Assembly: GCA_964458565.1 (NCBI GenBank) | Contig: CAYWJO010000002.1 | Span: 32,001 to 96,000, forward strand | Origin: an uncultured archaeon | Lineage (GTDB): Archaea; Asgardarchaeota; Thorarchaeia; Thorarchaeales; Thorarchaeaceae | Direction of reading: 5' to 3' | Length of the DNA: 64,000 nucleotides | Shown: positions 12,395 through 22,026 of the stretch, in pieces | How positions within the stretch are numbered: the first letter of the stretch is position 1 | Layout: the number at the start of each line of letters is the position of its first letter | The notes under the pieces: model-generated | Database searches by the model: none | What the model saw: the letters and a program-made list of their open reading frames with translations, nothing else | What the model was told of the DNA's origin: nothing | Program-made: the position numbers and the translations under genes

Positions 12395-13753
12395 ATGGAT
12401 TTTTATCAGAAAGCAGGGGTTGAGCCTATAGGCAATTTACCTAGGACTCATTTCACATTGGATATTATCCCGAAGAACAAGGATGTACATGTAATTCTCA
12501 TGGGTTGGGTTCATATTATCCGTGACAAGGGTAAAATCAAGTTCTTGATTCTAAGGGACGAACGTGGTGTAGCCCAAATAACAATTCCTCAGAAGAAAGT
12601 ACCCGTAGAAGTGTTCGAAACCTCTGAGCAACTGAAGCCAGAAATGGCTATTGCCGTGCATGGTAAAATTGTAGAAGCAAAACAAGTGGAGTCTGGTGCA
12701 GAGATAATTCCTGACAGAATTCGAATACTGAACACTGCTGAGCGTCTTCCGATTGATGTCGTTGAAGGTAAGGTCGATATTGAACTTGACACTAGGCTCA
12801 ACCATCGTATTCTTGATCTGCGAAAACCTAGTATAAATGCCATTTTTAGAATCCAGCATTCTCTTGTCCGATTTGCCCGAGAATATTTGGAGCGAAATGA
12901 TTTCATTGAAATTCACACACCAAAGATTGTCGCTGAAGCAACGGAGGGTGGCGCAAATCTCTTTGAAATAAAATATTTTGAAAAGAAGGCATATCTTGCA
13001 CAGAGCCCGCAATTCTACAAGCAGCTTATGTTACTTGCTGGATTTGGACGCGTCTTTGAGATCGCACCTGTTTTCAGAGCGGAGAAACACAATACCCGCC
13101 GCCATGTTAATGAATACACTTCATTTGATCTTGAAATGGCTTGGATTAGTGGCGTTGAGGATGTCATGCAGGTCGAGGAGCAAATGCTTCATTATTCATT
13201 TGAGCTGACTGCGAAACACTGTGTTAACGAATTTGACTTACTAAATGTGGATTTCGAGGTTCCGAAGTTGCCATTTGGTCGGATCAAGTATGTTGATGCT
13301 ATTGCCCTTCTCAATGAAAACGGAAAGGAACTAAATATCACCGATGATTTAGATCCTGAGAGCGAACGCCTTCTCGGGGACCTCTTTCCAGAGAAATTGG
13401 GTACAAATATGGTCTTCATCACTCACTATCCACTTGAACTAAGACCTGCATATACCATGCCAAGCTTGACTGATGAAGGAATGACTGAGAGCTTTGATCT
13501 CACTTACAAAGGAATGGAGATTACAACAGGAGGTCAACGTATTCATCTCTATGACCTTCTTGTTGAGCGTTTCAAAGCAAAGGGGTTCAATCCTGATGAT
13601 TTTGGATTCTATCTCGATCCTTTCATGTACGGCGCTCCTCCTCATGGTGGATTAGGACTTGGTGTCGAACGCTTGACCATGCAATTACTTGGAATTGATA
13701 ATATTCGTGAGGTAACCCTCCTCCCACGAGACCGTGACCGAATCACTCCCTGA
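12395..13753 (+). CDS. aspS: Aspartyl-tRNA synthetase (archaeal type, probably non-discriminating)
   Basis: OB fold GWVHIIRDKG (His typical of non-discriminating enzymes), LAQSPQ, FRAE, PPHGGLGLGVERL. Confidence 0.95.
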   Translation: MDFYQKAGVEPIGNLPRTHFTLDIIPKNKDVHVILMGWVHIIRDKGKIKFLILRDERGVAQITIPQKKVPVEVFETSEQLKPEMAIAVHGKIVEAKQVESGAEIIPDRIRILNTAERLPIDVVEGKVDIELDTRLNHRILDLRKPSINAIFRIQHSLVRFAREYLERNDFIEIHTPKIVAEATEGGANLFEIKYFEKKAYLAQSPQFYKQLMLLAGFGRVFEIAPVFRAEKHNTRRHVNEYTSFDLEMAWISGVEDVMQVEEQMLHYSFELTAKHCVNEFDLLNVDFEVPKLPFGRIKYVDAIALLNENGKELNITDDLDPESERLLGDLFPEKLGTNMVFITHYPLELRPAYTMPSLTDEGMTESFDLTYKGMEITTGGQRIHLYDLLVERFKAKGFNPDDFGFYLDPFMYGAPPHGGLGLGVERLTMQLLGIDNIREVTLLPRDRDRITP

Positions 13754-13828
13754 TAATACTTGGTCTTAAAGGATAAACTTGGTGAGTATGATTACCTCTT
13801 TAGAGTAATACCATATGGTGAGAACCAG

Positions 13829-14578
13829 ATGCCTGATAGAGCTCAATCAGAACTATATGCTTCAATAGCGACCCTCGATCAACTCAAGAAACTTTATGAT
13901 GTTGGCGCAGTTGATCCCCGGTCTTACCAGCGTGAAACTGAGGGATTACTTACTGAGGTTAGATTCCATCTTGATGAACTAAGACGAGTTGGGCTTGATG
14001 TTGGAAGATTTATTGAAACTGAACGGCTCTCAGACCAGTTTCCAGACGCTCTTCATATTCTTCAGTTGAGAGATACAAATCCATCAACCTCAGTTCAGGG
14101 TATGACAAAAGAGGAATATTATGATTATATCGGACTTTCCGTTCTCGATGTTGTCACTGCTAATTCCTCTAAAGGATTAATGGGATTGGCTGAGTTGATT
14201 GTTGAGGTAGTGCGAAAACTACCTGAATTGAAGTCAGTAAGTTACAATGATGTTATTGAAGCGGTAAATATGGTCGCTCAACATGGTTTAATCCCTGGTA
14301 TTAGGACTCTCAAAGGTGGAGTAAAGGTTGTTGAGCTTCGGCCTTTGGAATTACGCCGAGATCAGGCTGATGTAATCAATATTGCTGCCTCTAAGGGATT
14401 TGTTACTGTAGAAGAAATAATGCTTGAGTTCAAATGGTCTGAGGATCATGCGCGTCAAGTATTGACTAGTCTAGTCGATGCTGGAATGGCCGTTGCTGAT
14501 ATGAGGTTTTCCACAGGTGGCAGATACTGGTTCCCCGGTTTGCGTTCGAGAGACTCAAGTAGTCAAACGCATCCATAA
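13829..14578 (+). CDS. ESCRT-II Vps22/Vps36 (EAP30)-like protein with Vps28-N-terminal-like region
   Basis: C-terminal tandem winged helices match the Vps22 pattern (YYDYIGLSVLDV..GLMGLAEL..VSYNDVIEAV..GFVTVEEI..FKWSEDHARQVL..LV..G..RYWFPGL). N-terminus ELYASIATLDQLKKLYDVGAVDPRSYQRETEGLL resembles Vps28-N. Start ATG 13829 after GGTGAG. Confidence 0.85.
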   Translation: MPDRAQSELYASIATLDQLKKLYDVGAVDPRSYQRETEGLLTEVRFHLDELRRVGLDVGRFIETERLSDQFPDALHILQLRDTNPSTSVQGMTKEEYYDYIGLSVLDVVTANSSKGLMGLAELIVEVVRKLPELKSVSYNDVIEAVNMVAQHGLIPGIRTLKGGVKVVELRPLELRRDQADVINIAASKGFVTVEEIMLEFKWSEDHARQVLTSLVDAGMAVADMRFSTGGRYWFPGLRSRDSSSQTHP

Positions 14579-14579
14579 T

Positions 14580-15296
14580 CTAAAGTACCAGACGAACTGC
14601 TCCCTTCTGCTTGTCAATCCACTCTGCTAATTCTCTTTCTACAAGAAGCTTGATCACATAATGAATTTCTTTCTCAGGAAGTTTAGCAAAATTTTGTTTA
14701 TTTTCTTGAATCACAATAGACTTCACATCTAATCGAGTTCTACCATTTTCTAAAGCCCATTGATAGATTATATCTGCCCATTCTTCCAAGAAACGCCAAT
14801 ATACTCTCAATTGACGCTTTTTCCCCTCCATCCAAATTCCTACTTCTTTCTCAACAATCTTGTCGCCAATTTTTCTATAAGCATCGGCCTTGTTCTGGAT
14901 GTCTTTGAATGGATATTCTGACACAAACTTTGAGAAGCTAAGGATATGAATTGAGTATTCTTCACACCATTCGAGAACGAAATCGGACCACTCGGATGCC
15001 CACATCTGTAAATCCTCCTCTCTTACAGGAATGTGGTACATCCACTCAGTCTGTGATATGTCTCCCCAGCTTGGTAGTAACCGAGGCTCTTCTACAATCA
15101 TTTCTATTTCTGATTTAGTTTCAACAATACTACCTTTCTCTATCTCAGCTTCTGTTTCGATGATAGGCATTTCTTCGTGAATCATTGATTCCGTTTCAAT
15201 TTGAGTTTCAGTCTCTTGTTCTTCAACTATACCTTCTTTGGCATCGCTCTTATCAACTGACTTTTGTTTTCGCCTGATTCGCTCTCTCTCTCCCAC
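14580..15296 (-). CDS. vps25: ESCRT-II Vps25-like protein with acidic N-terminal extension
   Basis: QMWASEWSDFVLEWC, YPF and VYWRFLEEWADIIYQWA match Vps25 motifs; adjacent to Vps4. Confidence 0.85.
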   Translation of the reverse strand: MGERERIRRKQKSVDKSDAKEGIVEEQETETQIETESMIHEEMPIIETEAEIEKGSIVETKSEIEMIVEEPRLLPSWGDISQTEWMYHIPVREEDLQMWASEWSDFVLEWCEEYSIHILSFSKFVSEYPFKDIQNKADAYRKIGDKIVEKEVGIWMEGKKRQLRVYWRFLEEWADIIYQWALENGRTRLDVKSIVIQENKQNFAKLPEKEIHYVIKLLVERELAEWIDKQKGAVRLVL

Positions 15297-15299
15297 AGG

Positions 15300-16532
15300 C
15301 TAGGAACCCTCCGCCCAATCACTATACTTCTTCACGTCTTCCGGTGACGTTGCTGGTCTAATGTTATCAATGGCGTCTAGAAAATCCTTTCGTGAAACGG
15401 TTCTAAGATCCAGAATCTCGGTGTCATCATCCATTCTTCCGGTGCTTTCAAGTTCTCTAATTGGTTCCATAGCTGCTTCCCGACATACTATACTTAGATC
15501 TCGACCGCTGTATCCTTCTGTTAGCATAGCCATCTCATTAAAATCAACATCAGGCGCGATATCAACACCCTCAATATGTATCTCAAAAATCCGTCTTCTA
15601 GCAATCTTGTCAGGAAGTGGAACATGAATGCGTTTCTCAAAGCGGGAACGTAGAGCAAAATCAATCTCCCATGGTAAATTCGTCGCACCAATGAGAGTGA
15701 TTCTTTCATCTGCTTCACTAGCTAACCCTTGAAGCTCCGTCAACAGTTGTGTCTTTAATCTACGTTCTCCACCAACATCGTCTCCAGACCTCGCTACCCC
15801 AATTGAGTCCAGTTCATCAATAAATATAATCGCAGGCTGCATGCTTCGCGCTCGTTCAAATAGCATCTTGACAAGTTTCTCCGATTCTCCCAACCACTTA
15901 CTTACAATATTTGCTGCTGAAACATTGAAGAATGTTGCACTCACTTCTGCAGCAACCGCACGAGCTATCAACGTTTTCCCGCATCCTGCAGGTCCATAAA
16001 GTAGGATTCCTTTCCATGGTTGTCTTGCTTTACCTCTGAACAACTCAGGGTGTTTCATTGGGGCTACGATTGCCTCTGTGATTGCTTGTTTTGCCTTCTC
16101 AAGTCCTGCTACATCTGCCATACTTCCATGTGGTGTTTCAGTAATGATGGTGTCTGCAATCATATCTCCAAGTCTTTTTCCATCCTCATCATCAGTAGAG
16201 GGGACCGGTCTATCTGACTCAGAGGTTCTTGTATCTTCAACAATTGTTGTTGGGAGTGTGCTTATCCCATCTATTGGCCCTCTTGATTTCTTTTTAATTC
16301 CTGACAGATATCTGACTCTATCAACACATTCCTGAGCTCTATCCAAGTAGTGTTTCCGAACAGAACGTAATGTTGCTGCGTTAGAGAGCTTAATCAATAT
16401 CTTACTCGCTTGCAAGTATTGTCTTGCAGCTTCCTTTTTCATTCCCCTTCTGTCTAGATCGATGGCTTTCTCAAGGAGTTTCCTGAGTCCTTCATCGAGT
16501 CTATTACTACCTGAATCTGACATTTTCTTCAC
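15300..16532 (-). CDS. vps4: Vps4 AAA+ ATPase (MIT + AAA)
   Basis: N-terminal MIT (KAIDLD..EAARQY), GILLYGPAGCGKT, SKWLGESEK, IIFIDELD, GATNLPW, RFEKRI. Confidence 0.93.
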   Translation of the reverse strand: MKKMSDSGSNRLDEGLRKLLEKAIDLDRRGMKKEAARQYLQASKILIKLSNAATLRSVRKHYLDRAQECVDRVRYLSGIKKKSRGPIDGISTLPTTIVEDTRTSESDRPVPSTDDEDGKRLGDMIADTIITETPHGSMADVAGLEKAKQAITEAIVAPMKHPELFRGKARQPWKGILLYGPAGCGKTLIARAVAAEVSATFFNVSAANIVSKWLGESEKLVKMLFERARSMQPAIIFIDELDSIGVARSGDDVGGERRLKTQLLTELQGLASEADERITLIGATNLPWEIDFALRSRFEKRIHVPLPDKIARRRIFEIHIEGVDIAPDVDFNEMAMLTEGYSGRDLSIVCREAAMEPIRELESTGRMDDDTEILDLRTVSRKDFLDAIDNIRPATSPEDVKKYSDWAEGS

Positions 16533-16662
16533 TTCTTCTTAGGATTGTTCTGTTATGAATCAATGTGTATTACTCTGCCATTACCTTTAACGTTACGAAG
16601 GTTTAAACGATGTTTTCTCATGTCTTGTTTGAGGATAAAATTTCTCTGTGCGGTGAATCCTT

Positions 16663-17271
16663 TTGGGTACATTCAAAAAAGCATGGTCTTGGGGTCGTAA
16701 AAAACCCGACATATCTGAGGTTTCTAGTCAATTACGTATTCTAATAAAACAGTTAGAACGTCAGAGAAATAAATTGGAAAAAGAGGAACGTGACACGAAA
16801 GCTCGTGCTATTCGTGCGCGACAAGCAGGTCAGAATGAAGCATATGTGACCTATGCAACTGAAATGGTTCGATTTCGTCGCTATGTTCTTTCAATCGATA
16901 AATCCCGCTTACAGATGTTGAAGATTTTGGCTCATCTAACCCGGGCACAGACAACTGCTAAAGCAGCGAAAGCTATGGAAGATGTTGCTAAAATCCTTGG
17001 AATGCTTGGGGACTCCATGGATGCCTCAAAGGTCATAGAGAATGCTGATGAAATTGCTCGTCAAGTTCAAGAGTTCGAAATCGAATCTGGTATTGCTGAT
17101 GATGCATTCGATTCTGCTATGCCTGAGATTTCTAGTGAAGACATCGCTGAGGCTATGGCTGAAATCGACGCTGAAGTTGGTGGTAAAGCAACTGTTGGAA
17201 AACGTCCGGCGACTGAAGCGGAAGCATTAGAGGATGACATTAAAGCATTGGAACGAGAGCTAGGTGTGTAA
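16663..17271 (+). CDS. ESCRT-III subunit, Vps2/24/46-like
   Basis: Amphipathic N-terminus MGTFKKAWSWGRKK, basic helical hairpin (ARQAGQNEAYVTYATEMVRFRR), acidic C-half, MIM1-like end EDDIKALERELGV; divergent from vps4. Confidence 0.9.
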   Translation: MGTFKKAWSWGRKKPDISEVSSQLRILIKQLERQRNKLEKEERDTKARAIRARQAGQNEAYVTYATEMVRFRRYVLSIDKSRLQMLKILAHLTRAQTTAKAAKAMEDVAKILGMLGDSMDASKVIENADEIARQVQEFEIESGIADDAFDSAMPEISSEDIAEAMAEIDAEVGGKATVGKRPATEAEALEDDIKALERELGV

Positions 17272-17275
17272 CGCT

Positions 17276-18835
17276 CTATAGATCATATCTTCTTTCTGCA
17301 GAGTGTCTCTCAATTTCTCGACGTGCATAATATGAATCTCGCATCAGGCTACGATATCTTCTGATAAAATCTTCAGGAACGATTCTTCCAGCTCTCAACA
17401 TATGAATAGTTTCCCGAATTGCGTCATCAAGCGCTCTTGCATCTCTTCTCATATTATCAAGATTTGGTCTTGTTTGACGCTCGTAATATTGTGGCGGTGT
17501 TCTCTGGCCTATTAGTTGTTCCAAATGGTCGCTGAACCGTTGCTGACTACCATAGTTTTGTGAATATCCAACTTGACGGTCTCTTGACCATTGATCAGTC
17601 TGCGGTTGCGGATAATATCTCGAAGTATCTTGTGCATAACGAGGTCCTGTCATTTTGGAATTCAGTATTGAATATACAATTCCCTCAATTCTTAGTCGAA
17701 TATCGCTGATGTTGGTGTCGGTCTGTTCTAACTTTCTCACACGCTGCATGTCAGTCTGAACATATCGTTCAAATCTACGTGCGATTTCAATGTAGTCTGG
17801 AAGAACTCTTTTCGTTTGATCACTGCAGATAATTTTAAGATCTCCCTGTTTCAACTTCAAAACCAATCGTTTTCGAAGTCGACCATCTTCTTGTATATCT
17901 TTCAGATACAGAAGTGGAAAATCAAAAACGATGTCAGTTTTTTTCCTTACCAACCCCGTTTCAGCAACGAAAATCATTCTTTTATTTGTGATAAAGAGAC
18001 TTCCTGTAGCTTTGTCATTCTTGATAAAATCGCTTCCTGCAAGAGTTATTGGTGAGAACGCGCTCACAGGTAGTTCATTGACTGAAAGTTCAGAGTATTC
18101 GTAAAAGGGTGAGAATTTATCTCTATAATACTTCAACCCATCTAGTTGTTTCTTTACGTCATCCATAGTCAATCGTGCTTGAACCAACGTTTCTTCCACA
18201 AGAGCTCGGTAGCTTATTCCAAGTTCAGTAATTCGATTAACAACTCCTTCAATAAAGGGAAATTGAGATGGACTCCAAGAAGACTGATCAATCAATCCTT
18301 TAGTTTCTGCAACCATCTGTTTAGCTACAATCTCGGCGTGATTTCCAATTCGCTTCTTTATCGCTGGGAATTCAGCATGTATTTCTTCAATTCTCTCTTC
18401 CAACCACTTGTAATGAAGGAAATTAGCCATCCTTAGAGATACCAATAATCTCTTTCCAGCGACCATTCGATTTGTGAATTCCTTAAGTTTCGTGTGTCCA
18501 TATTGCAGGCTCATTATCGCACTACGCATATCATGAGCTAACTCTCTTTGCTTCTCTGATATGTGTACGATTCTACTTGAATGACAGTGAGGGCAAACCT
18601 CCATTGTCCTCTTACCAATCCCAAGGTTCTCAGAGTCGCACTCGGGACATTTCAAGGGATTTTCACCTGGCAATGGGACTCCAAGATTGTGCTGGCAATC
18701 TTTGCACATTCGGTATTCTCTAACTCTCTGTTCCAAACATGCTGAGCAAATTGTAGTTCCGCAGTCCTCACACATATGAGTTGCAGACTGATTCTCACAT
18801 TCCTTGCATGTTAGGTTTGAGGAATCTGCGGTCAT
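17276..18835 (-). CDS. Zn-finger / coiled-coil / GRAM-PH-like / steadiness-box-like protein (putative ESCRT-I subunit)
   Basis: Six CxxC pairs in aa 10-84; helical aa ~95-240; ATGSLFITNKRMIF (aa 276-289); Q/Y/P/R-rich linker; C-terminal ALDDAIRETIHMLRAGRIVPEDFIRRYRSLMRDSYYARREIE. Confidence 0.7.
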   Translation of the reverse strand: MTADSSNLTCKECENQSATHMCEDCGTTICSACLEQRVREYRMCKDCQHNLGVPLPGENPLKCPECDSENLGIGKRTMEVCPHCHSSRIVHISEKQRELAHDMRSAIMSLQYGHTKLKEFTNRMVAGKRLLVSLRMANFLHYKWLEERIEEIHAEFPAIKKRIGNHAEIVAKQMVAETKGLIDQSSWSPSQFPFIEGVVNRITELGISYRALVEETLVQARLTMDDVKKQLDGLKYYRDKFSPFYEYSELSVNELPVSAFSPITLAGSDFIKNDKATGSLFITNKRMIFVAETGLVRKKTDIVFDFPLLYLKDIQEDGRLRKRLVLKLKQGDLKIICSDQTKRVLPDYIEIARRFERYVQTDMQRVRKLEQTDTNISDIRLRIEGIVYSILNSKMTGPRYAQDTSRYYPQPQTDQWSRDRQVGYSQNYGSQQRFSDHLEQLIGQRTPPQYYERQTRPNLDNMRRDARALDDAIRETIHMLRAGRIVPEDFIRRYRSLMRDSYYARREIERHSAERRYDL

Positions 18836-20640: not shown

Positions 20641-22026
20641 ATGGAGGATTTAGCAGAAGCTGCAATTAATGCGGGACTTGATGCGGGTGCATCATTTGTA
20701 GATATCCGGATTGAGAACACCGTCACAACCATTCTCGAAATGACTGATGGTGTTACAAAGAGATCAATGGCATCACGTTTGAAAGGTGCAGGAATTCGTG
20801 CGTTTGTTGATGGTGCTTGGGCTTTTGCGCAAAACACTGACTTAACACTTGATGGTATGCGCGAAGTAGGGACATCGGTAGCAAAGCTTGCAATAGCGAC
20901 TCGAGAAAAGGTCTCCGAAAAGTTTGAGATTGAGGGACCTGTTTTCACGGCTAAGGAAAAGATGGTTGTGAAAAAACCATTCCAAGATGTGTCAATTGAT
21001 GACAAGATAAGTTTCGTCAAACAAATTGACAAACAAGCACGCGAATACGATGAGCGTGTAGTAAACACTCGGACTGTATACGGAGATCTTTGGACTGAGC
21101 TCTTTGTTGTTAATTCATTAGGTACGAGCATTTACCATGAGAATTATCTCCCCCGGATAATTTCAGTTGTGACTGCTAGAGAGGGCAACAATCGCCAGAG
21201 AGGATTTCTATCCATCGGGGCACAAGGTGGTTTCGAAGAGATGGAGAAAGAAAGACCTCAGAATCTTGGAACCGAAGCGTCAAAACTAGCTATAGATCTA
21301 CTATCATCAAAGGCAGCTGAAGGTGGAGTTTACGATGTTGTAATGGATCCCATCTTAAATGGTGTTATGGTGCATGAGGCTTTTGGTCATGCAGCTGAAG
21401 CTGATAACTGGCCAGCACACGCTACAGTTCTCGAGGACAAGGTAGGCGAATGTGTCGGTCCTGACAATCTGAATCTCAGCGATGATCCAACGATGCCTAG
21501 GGAACGTGGGTCGTTTAGCTATGATTGGGAAGGCACAAAGACAAGGAAGCGTCATTTGGTTAAGGGTGGAATTTTAACAGAACTCCTCCATAGTCTTGAA
21601 ACAGCATCTCGTCTTGATATGGAACCCAATGGTGCTGCAAGAGCCCAGAGTTTCATGTATCCACCTCTACCCAGAATGAGTAACACCTTCATGGAACCAG
21701 GTGATTGGGACAAAGACGAGCTCATCGTTGACACAAAGAATGGGATACTTCTGTGTGGTTTCAATTATGGTTACACAGAACCAGCAAAGGGGCAATTCAT
21801 GTTCCAAGCCAATTATGGGTACATGATTCAAAATGGGGAGATTGGGCAAATGGTTCGGGATGTTTCACTCGCAGGACAAATTCTTGAGGTTCTACCCAAA
21901 ATTGATGCAATTGCTAATGACTTTGAGCTCGATAGCGGAACGTGTGGTAAAGGTGGCCAAGGAGTACCTGACATGACCGGAGGTCCACACGCTCGAATTA
22001 TTCAAGTTCCTGTAGGAGGAATGTAG
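20641..22026 (+). CDS. tldD: TldD metalloprotease
   Basis: HEAFGH..E.D, PRMSNT, CGKGGQ. Confidence 0.93.
   Translation: MEDLAEAAINAGLDAGASFVDIRIENTVTTILEMTDGVTKRSMASRLKGAGIRAFVDGAWAFAQNTDLTLDGMREVGTSVAKLAIATREKVSEKFEIEGPVFTAKEKMVVKKPFQDVSIDDKISFVKQIDKQAREYDERVVNTRTVYGDLWTELFVVNSLGTSIYHENYLPRIISVVTAREGNNRQRGFLSIGAQGGFEEMEKERPQNLGTEASKLAIDLLSSKAAEGGVYDVVMDPILNGVMVHEAFGHAAEADNWPAHATVLEDKVGECVGPDNLNLSDDPTMPRERGSFSYDWEGTKTRKRHLVKGGILTELLHSLETASRLDMEPNGAARAQSFMYPPLPRMSNTFMEPGDWDKDELIVDTKNGILLCGFNYGYTEPAKGQFMFQANYGYMIQNGEIGQMVRDVSLAGQILEVLPKIDAIANDFELDSGTCGKGGQGVPDMTGGPHARIIQVPVGGM

Follow-up and report, generated by a model that had tools for sequence, protein, structure and literature searches.

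Five tightly packed genes at positions 13829-18835 of the window (the whole 64,000-nucleotide stretch analysed, from an uncultured archaeon of the Thorarchaeaceae) very probably represent a conserved and already published ESCRT locus of Thorarchaeota, the products of which would form a chain leading from an adaptor to ESCRT-III (Table 1). Pfam searches, PDB profile searches and hhalign upheld all five domain assignments made in an initial annotation of this DNA, and its open reading frame positions and gap sizes match the recomputed frames, with gaps of 1, 3, 130 and 4 bp from g1 to g5. g1 and g2 are convergent, vps4 and vps25 run in the same direction, and the ESCRT-III gene is divergent from vps4 and convergent with g5; the block thus comprises four transcription units, not one operon. 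Positioned 3 bp downstream of vps4, vps25 is probably co-transcribed with it, and the divergent spacer presumably holds the promoters of both vps4 and the ESCRT-III gene. Synteny of the block extends to the Thorarchaeota relatives examined: the same order and orientation, including the AspRS and PmbA/TldD flanks, are found in loci L003 (BAJATHOR), L004 and L005, with g5 identities of 54% in L003 and 46% in L004 and L005.

Table 1. The ESCRT block, in positions of the window.
Feature	Position	Strand	Size
g1 Vps28N-Vps22	13829-14578	+	249 aa
g2 Vps25	14580-15296	-	238 aa
g3 Vps4	15300-16532	-	410 aa
vps4/ESCRT-III divergent spacer	16533-16662		130 bp, AT-rich
g4 ESCRT-III, Vps2/24/46 class ("ESCRT-IIIA")	16663-17271	+	202 aa
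g5 Znr_CC_PH_SB	17276-18835	-	519 aa

Both the cluster and its fused proteins have been described before. Hatano 2022 (Nat Commun, PMC9192718) lists ThorAB25_08990-09030 plus ThorAB25_07240, which were cloned for yeast two-hybrid analysis. ThorAB25_08990 (SB), ThorAB25_09000 (ESCRT3A), ThorAB25_09010 (Vps4), ThorAB25_09020 (Vps25) and ThorAB25_09030 (Vps22) are the same five genes in the same order as here; ESCRT3B is likewise unlinked, and ubiquitin is absent in both. Long strings such as LLVSLRMANFLHY and ASIATLDQLKK are identical between the printed ThorAB25 sequences and g5, g1 and g2, and ThorAB25 represents another genus or species (g5 homologues about 50-60% identical) with the same architecture. 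Makarova 2024 (mBio, PMC10936438) introduced the family names Znr_CC_PH_SB (cog.011556) and Vps22# (cog.002769), the latter being a steadiness box fused to Vps22, and g5 and g1 do not differ from these in kind. Table S3 of that study assigns residues 1-70 of Thor Vps22 to the VPS28 N-domain with a probability of 99. Its authors also regard Znr_PH_CC_SB, as the family is written there too, as probably belonging to ESCRT-I, its PH domain being membrane-associated. The domain fusions having been in print in 2022-2024, the cluster is not an undescribed system, and the initial annotation, which regarded it as the best candidate for one, was mistaken on this point. That this is a novel, newly re-wired ESCRT system is consistent with the label "hypothetical protein" given to homologues of g5 and g1 in databases, and with the sub-threshold Pfam scores of the fused modules, but the prior publication of the cluster (PMC9192718), of both fusions (PMC10936438) and of the lack of ubiquitin makes this extremely improbable.

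The g1 product is of the Vps22# (cog.002769) type, and both the Vps22 core and the Vps28-type N-domain are present. A Vps28 N-domain, consisting of the steadiness-box hairpin and extra helices, occupies aa 1 to ~85 and is followed by the Vps22 tandem winged helix at aa ~93-240. Alignment of homologues, of which there are 135, places the start at the ATG at 13829 in preference to a TTG further upstream, at 13760, and a GGTGA lies 8 nt upstream of this start. The Vps22 portion matches Pfam EAP30 (2.8e-15, 57 bits, cut-off 26.8) and, in PDB profile searches, SNF8/Vps22 (2e-19) rather than Vps36 (0.65). Pfam VPS28 matches weakly (aa 30-110 of a 272-aa frame), and an hhalign comparison with 15 canonical Asgard Vps28 proteins gave a probability of 98.5% (E 2.9e-15, 78 columns), pairing g1 residues 7-84 with Vps28 residues 1-78 of 190. 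The C-terminal bundle of Vps28 is missing from g1, this alignment covering only Vps28 1-78 of 190. AF2 models residues 2-54 as a hairpin and also shows two winged-helix domains; Foldseek matches this model to 6vme_X, a chain of the ESCRT-I headpiece (TM 0.69, rmsd 2.3 Å), and to 2zme_A (6e-9).

In g5, at the other end of the block, three zinc sites occupy residues 10-85 and a stalk of three helices residues 92-241; the PH domain (256-353) and further helices (363-391) follow, and a disordered linker (395-455) leads to a putative steadiness-box hairpin of Vps23 type (459-518). The zinc ribbons are formed by 12 cysteines in six pairs (C10/13, C22/25, C30/33, C44/47, C63/66 and C81/84), invariant or nearly so among 30 homologues, and this region gives weak matches to DZR, B-box, RING and FYVE. 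The AF2 model has an overall pLDDT of 77, with about 90 for the hairpin (459-518) and 87-94 across its residues 461-510; the stalk helices (92-135, 142-178 and 189-241) mostly score 79-94, falling to 65 at the 136-141 break. The PH domain is modelled as a beta-sandwich (256-336) and a helix (339-353); its fold is confirmed by Foldseek matches to PH domains (E ~1e-5) and to the Vps36 GLUE domain (2cay_B, TM 0.55), and it weakly matches Pfam bPH_3 (0.012). The steadiness box itself scores below threshold against Vps23_core (E 0.0055, 17-21 bits, cut-off 26.8). Its putative assignment draws on agreement among methods and on better-scoring orthologues: PDB profile searches find the yeast Vps23 core in three constructs (E 0.01, 0.03 and 0.06), and two orthologues from another family (G022:C133 and G118:C69) clear the Vps23_core cut-off with 31.0 and 30.2 bits.

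The three remaining genes encode more conventional ESCRT components. g2 is identified as Vps25 by its match to Pfam ESCRT-II (PF05871; 5.1e-14, 53.1 bits, cut-off 27, aa 100-187), which is preceded by an acidic, low-complexity N-terminal extension of ~75 aa, also found in the orthologue ThorAB25_09020. g3 has the domains of a Vps4 AAA+ ATPase: a MIT domain (weak, 19.9 bits against a cut-off of 30), AAA (1e-39, 136 bits), the lid (AAA_lid_3, 1e-13) and Vps4_C (24.8 bits, cut-off 21.3). g4 matches Pfam Snf7 (4.9e-14, 52.8 bits), and its best solved relatives are CHMP2A (1.5e-7), then CHMP3 and CHMP1B, in agreement with the Vps2/24/46 subtype proposed for it earlier; a MIM1-like C-terminal helix was recognized by eye only. 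A genome-wide search for a Snf7-type ESCRT-III, as the initial annotation had suggested, found one: an unlinked second gene of Snf7/ESCRT-IIIB type on contig C4, with Heimdall ESCRT-IIIB and Snf7 as best matches.

Ubiquitin (PF00240) had no match in the whole genome, a MAG that is 93% complete, and neither did UEV or E2 (PF05743/PF00179), in searches for which no positive control gave a signal. The absence of ubiquitin, UEV and E2 noted previously for the window thus extends to the whole of this assembly, although at 93% completeness absences from this genome alone are not proof. Ubiquitin was also found in 0/17 genomes of the same family and 0/1 of the sister family, and its detection in 88/121 genomes of the phylum sample provides a positive control for that search. 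The statement in the initial annotation that Thorarchaeia lack ubiquitin is borne out, and Hatano 2022 (PMC9192718) likewise describes Thorarchaeota as being without it. A canonical Vps28 above the Pfam cut-off is present in 82/121 genomes of the phylum sample, and none was found in this genome or in any of the 17 family members sampled (0/17), so that the stand-alone Vps28 considered previously did not materialize in any of them. Both ubiquitin and Vps28 are present in most other Asgard families sampled. The 163 homologues of g5 are nearly all labelled Thorarchaeota, and the Znr_CC_PH_SB family as a whole occurs in 80 of the 121 Asgard genomes sampled, some of them from families in which ubiquitin, Vps23 and Vps28 are also present. 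This coexistence indicates that the protein was retained by Thorarchaeota and not invented as a substitute. The earlier proposal that zinc-finger and PH modules would replace ubiquitin recognition should therefore be put more mildly, the protein not being a replacement specific to Thorarchaeota.

In the mechanism that we favor, Znr_CC_PH_SB would act as the sole ESCRT-I-like adaptor, with its PH and zinc modules binding membrane or cargo. Its Vps23-type hairpin may pack on the Vps28-type N-terminal hairpin of g1, mimicking the Vps23-Vps28 contact of the eukaryotic headpiece. The contact between the Vps23 core and the Vps28 N-domain in ESCRT-I is structurally established, and entries containing it (2F66, 2CAZ, 2P22 and 6VME) were matched in the searches performed here; the predicted pairing is a reasonable inference from homology to these headpiece hairpins. 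Vps22 would then homodimerize and bind Vps25, Vps25 would nucleate the unlinked ESCRT-IIIB followed by the ESCRT-IIIA of the cluster, and Vps4 would take the polymer apart through its MIT domain. In its available text, Hatano 2022 (PMC9192718) reports contacts between Asgard Vps25 and ESCRT-IIIB proteins, self-interaction of Vps22 in Heimdall-, Loki- and Thorarchaeota, and an interaction of the SB protein in Loki- and Thorarchaeota. The Thor partner is there called "Vps28", and the six cloned proteins, as given in that text, include no separate Thor Vps28.

The g5 hairpin could instead engage the winged helix of Vps22 or Vps25, or ESCRT-III directly, and not the Vps28-type hairpin. Such a contact is known from Crenarchaeota, where CdvA binds the CdvB winged helix. 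The sub-threshold score of the g5 steadiness box would allow for such a mode, as would the sequence resemblance of steadiness boxes to CdvA hairpins (Makarova 2024, PMC10936438; 2023 preprint). Still, g5 has no match to Pfam CdvA (PF18822) at E up to 1, while Vps23_core did match, the profile search retrieves the yeast Vps23 core three times, and the domain kept on Vps22 is specifically the Vps28 N-domain, the known partner of Vps23; together these points render a CdvA-like mode unlikely. To a similar degree, it is doubtful that g5 has a narrower role, being neither the sole nor perhaps the main upstream adaptor, with other helical proteins feeding ESCRT-II. A candidate is a 411-aa helical protein encoded on contig C4, which is conserved across Thorarchaeota (295 homologues), has several orthologues with precomputed BAR matches, and is similar to the Thor "BAR-SB" protein already in print, for which BAR and Vps28 matches are given in Table S3 of Makarova 2024 (PMC10936438). 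Two of its orthologues have weak Vps28-like matches (E 0.006-0.009), and the Vps28 C-domain 2j9w is matched at E 0.11, but all of these are below threshold and none occurs in the copy of this genome. Moreover, its gene is unlinked to the ESCRT cluster and adjoins a D-aminoacyl-tRNA deacylase gene, whereas, in the Thorarchaeota loci examined, synteny between g5 and the ESCRT genes is strict.

Compared with eukaryotic ESCRT-I/II (Vps23-Vps28-Vps37-Mvb12; Vps22-Vps36-2xVps25), the Thor system shares a putative Vps23-type hairpin, the Vps28-type N-domain, the tandem winged helices of Vps22 and Vps25, a GLUE-like PH fold, two ESCRT-III classes and Vps4. It is without UEV, ubiquitin, Vps37, Mvb12, Vps36 and the Vps28 C-domain, the PH domain belongs to the ESCRT-I-like protein and not to Vps36, and Vps28-N is covalently joined to Vps22. 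With the crenarchaeal Cdv system (CdvA-CdvB-CdvC) it has in common ESCRT-III, Vps4 and an adaptor that bears a helical hairpin and, in the Thor case presumably, binds membrane. Cdv, however, lacks ESCRT-II, the winged helix is part of CdvB itself, and g3 scores far under the NCBIfam CdvC equivalog cut-off (265 bits against 650).

The distribution of g1 bears on the origin of its fusion. In the phylum sample, whole-length profile matches are confined to its own order, and outside that order positions 4-85 match a separate vps28 gene immediately upstream of vps22. Given this arrangement in other Asgard archaea, g1 looks like an in-frame fusion of neighbors. The chances are about even that it arose by an in-frame deletion joining adjacent vps28 and vps22, in which precisely the C-domain of Vps28 and the N-terminal helices of Vps22 were lost. 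The fusion is already in print; its origin from neighbors and the implication thereof were not found spelled out in the Asgard ESCRT literature searched.

Asgard ESCRT bears on the origin of eukaryotic membrane trafficking, and Thorarchaeota provide the natural example of ESCRT-I/II/III machinery lacking ubiquitin. The overall picture is unchanged by this further example of a published cluster, and what it adds is comparative: the fusion partners are neighbors elsewhere, and the zinc/PH/SB adaptor coexists elsewhere with ubiquitin, Vps23 and Vps28, both of which help to frame binding experiments. If the deletion did occur, g1 would be a natural "Rosetta stone", the two lost pieces being the non-covalent ESCRT-I/II docking pair of other Asgard archaea, and Thorarchaeota would have been left with a minimal, ubiquitin-independent, three-polypeptide route from membrane to ESCRT-III.

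The five ESCRT genes of this Thorarchaeaceae archaeon lie where the initial annotation had placed them, as open reading frames (g1 to g5, see the table) with successive spacers of 1, 3, 130 and 4 bp. The true start of g1 is the ATG at 13829, at which 30 homologues begin, not the TTG at 13760 further upstream, and this ATG is preceded by GGTGA, 8 nt upstream. The genes g1 and g2 are convergent, as are g4 and g5; vps4 and vps25 run in the same direction with 3 bp between them, and vps4 diverges from the ESCRT-III gene. The five-gene locus is compact, yet it is divided into four transcription units. The synteny expected in relatives was found, as both order and orientation (PmbA/TldD, g5, ESCRT-III, Vps4, Vps25, Vps22, AspRS) are kept on contigs with 54% and 46% identity in g5. 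The AspRS-type and PmbA/TldD genes also adjoin the ESCRT cluster in distant Thorarchaeota contigs, so conservation extends beyond the five ESCRT genes.

Genes of the ESCRT locus and its flanks (window coordinates)
Gene	Product	Position	Strand	Placement
	aspartyl/asparaginyl-tRNA synthetase (AspRS)-type	12395-13753		upstream of g1
g1	Vps28N-Vps22	13829-14578	+	
g2	Vps25	14580-15296	-	
g3	Vps4	15300-16532	-	
g4	ESCRT-III, Vps2/24/46 class (ESCRT-IIIA)	16663-17271	+	
g5	Znr_CC_PH_SB	17276-18835	-	
	beta-lactamase-fold			flanking
	PmbA/TldD	20641-22026		beyond g5

Pfam, profile, hhalign and AF2/Foldseek results also bear out the domain reading of the five genes in the initial annotation. In Pfam, g1 matches EAP30 (2.8e-15) and, weakly, the VPS28 N-terminal domain. 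A g1 profile built from 30 homologues matches human SNF8/Vps22 at 2e-19 and Vps36 at just 0.65, and residues 7-84 of g1 pair with residues 1-78 of Vps28 when aligned by hhalign with 15 canonical Asgard Vps28 sequences (probability 98.5%, E 2.9e-15). The AF2 model of g1 (pLDDT 80) opens with a hairpin (2-54) and short helices, which a disordered linker (81-88) separates from two winged helices. With this model, Foldseek returned human and yeast Vps22. It also matched the N-terminus to 6vme_X (TM 0.69, rmsd 2.3 Å), one of the chains of the human ESCRT-I headpiece; at 101 residues this chain is taken to be VPS28, the only construct of such length in that entry. The C-terminal bundle of Vps28 has no counterpart in g1. 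The 135 homologues of g1 and the 163 of g5 are nearly all labelled Thorarchaeota and "hypothetical".

The Pfam matches of g5 are all sub-threshold, and its alignment of 30 sequences contains six conserved Cys pairs. In the AF2 model (pLDDT 77), zinc modules are followed by three long helices and by a PH-type sandwich that ends in a helix; a disordered linker then leads to a confidently predicted C-terminal hairpin. Foldseek returned PH domains, the Vps36 GLUE domain among them. The g5 family profile matches three crystal constructs that contain the yeast Vps23 core (E 0.01-0.06), a conserved G-R-L-V-P-E-D-F-I-R-R-Y-R motif of the family aligns with the turn and second helix of Vps23, and the C-termini of g5 orthologues in another Asgard family pass the Vps23_core Pfam cut-off. 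In a large protein library, the family forms about 120 representative clusters. A search for a free steadiness box (SB) protein with the g5-SB profile yielded no more than a chance match, in a 783-aa gene read in an alternate frame. A 175-aa protein of another genome (G005) falls just under the Vps23_core cut-off (25.3 bits) and was set aside, as its orthologue here has no such match. This orthologue is a 177-aa helical protein (G000 C15:29574-30107; L053:2072-2605, - strand) with generic helical matches alone.

The remaining genes encode Vps25 with an acidic extension in front (g2, 5e-14), Vps4 (g3) and a Snf7-family protein whose nearest solved relatives are CHMP2A, CHMP3 and CHMP1B (g4). 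A second ESCRT-III gene (G000 C4:103898-104554; L017:5898-6554, +), with best matches to Heimdall ESCRT-IIIB and Snf7, sits alone between inositol-monophosphatase and HAD-hydrolase genes. It is unlinked to the cluster, and so is its AB_25 counterpart, ThorAB25_07240.

In the genome that carries this locus, which is 93% complete, so that absences mean "not found" and are not proof of absence, the search for ubiquitin, a UEV or E2 fold and a stand-alone Vps28 found none, g1 itself being the sole weak PF03997 match. A 411-aa all-helical protein (G000 C4:6890-8122; L016:3891-5126, +), adjoining a D-aminoacyl-tRNA deacylase gene, was considered as a Vps28. It is conserved across Thorarchaeota (295 homologues); several orthologues carry precomputed BAR (PF03114) matches and two have weak full-length VPS28 matches (E 0.006-0.009). 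The candidate was rejected, as the G000 copy has no Vps28 match and the best match of the family profile to the Vps28 C-domain has E 0.11. It may be the thorarchaeal "BAR-SB" of Makarova 2024 (Table S3, KXH73277.1; PMC10936438); the SMTZ1-45 and SMTZ1-83 orthologues have other accessions.

Among 121 genomes sampled across the phylum (17 of the own family, one of its sister family), ubiquitin was found in 88, in 0/17 of the own family and in 0/1 of the sister family. This agrees with the initial annotation, according to which Thorarchaeia lack the ubiquitin system, and with Hatano 2022 (PMC9192718), in which Thorarchaeota seemingly lack ubiquitin. Canonical Vps28 passes the cut-off in 82/121 genomes and in 0/17 of the own family; the sister-family match is borderline and falls on the fused gene. 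The g5 family is present in 80/121 genomes, including 17/17 and 1/1 of the two families, and also occurs in families with ubiquitin, Vps23 and Vps28, where it frequently shares a contig with them. In the sister-family genome (G112), the Vps28N-Vps22, Vps25 and Vps4 genes lie together (L015, G112:C64:29000-37000), with a 239-aa ORF (faint bPH_3 match) and a 453-aa ORF next to vps22; the Znr_CC_PH homologue is on a separate contig (G112:C23:69665-71050). The one flanking ORF scanned, L015:6292-7005, encodes a metalloenzyme/phosphodiesterase-type protein and gave no Snf7-family match; a 140-aa ORF adjoins vps4.

As to the origin of g1, matches to its full-length profile in the phylum sample are confined to the own and sister families. 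Elsewhere, g1 positions from about 72-94 onward match Vps22, and positions 4-85 match a separate gene. Eighteen non-thorarchaeal loci from 12 families, picked because the two matches sat near each other on a single contig, serve as illustrations and not as a survey. All 18 have a canonical vps28 immediately upstream of a co-directional vps22, separated by -38 to 448 bp at 17 loci and by 1408 bp at the remaining one. The Vps28 N-domains at these loci are matched by the thorarchaeal N-terminal profile (E 1e-11 to 1e-20), which never matched the N-terminal region (~95-115 residues) of the Vps22 proteins there. The simplest reading is that two adjacent genes fused in frame to give g1, with loss of the C-domain of Vps28 and of the N-terminal helices of Vps22.

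The suggestion of an undescribed system does not stand; the thorarchaeal five-gene ESCRT cluster is already known. Hatano 2022 (PMC9192718) lists ThorAB25_08990 (SB), 09000 (ESCRT3A), 09010 (Vps4), 09020 (Vps25), 09030 (Vps22) and 07240 (ESCRT3B), and all six were cloned for yeast two-hybrid; the sequences printed for AB_25 include clear orthologues of g5, g1 and g2. Both unusual families appear in Makarova 2024 (PMC10936438), where Znr_CC_PH_SB (cog.011556) is considered a likely part of ESCRT-I that was probably already present in the Asgard ancestor, with a PH domain expected to be membrane-associated, and Vps22# (cog.002769) is Vps22 fused to a steadiness box, residues 1-70 of the thorarchaeal protein being a VPS28 N-domain (probability 99, Table S3).

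On G118:C69:44246-52973 and similar contigs of ubiquitin-bearing Asgard families (G029:C17, G096:C19, G053:C138), a stretch of about 9-21 kb holds ubiquitin, vps28, vps22, a gene of ~263 aa with a Vps23 core at its C-terminal end and a Znr_CC_PH_SB homologue of 499 aa. Three hairpin-bearing proteins thus coexist in these families, which invites the idea of Znr_CC_PH_SB as a Vps37 stand-in within the headpiece.

What the analysis shows directly is the gene content and domain homology of the locus, its synteny and its lineage pattern. By analogy with the eukaryotic headpiece, the putative Vps23-type hairpin of g5 would pack onto its Vps28-type counterpart in g1. The chief alternative is CdvA-like, with the g5 hairpin binding a winged helix or ESCRT-III instead. 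In the Asgard proteins assayed by Hatano 2022 (PMC9192718), contacts were seen between Vps25 and ESCRT-IIIB and between Vps4 and ESCRT-III. The PH domain and zinc modules of g5 would engage membrane or cargo. Vps25 would then nucleate the unlinked ESCRT-IIIB, after which ESCRT-IIIA and Vps4 from the cluster would act.
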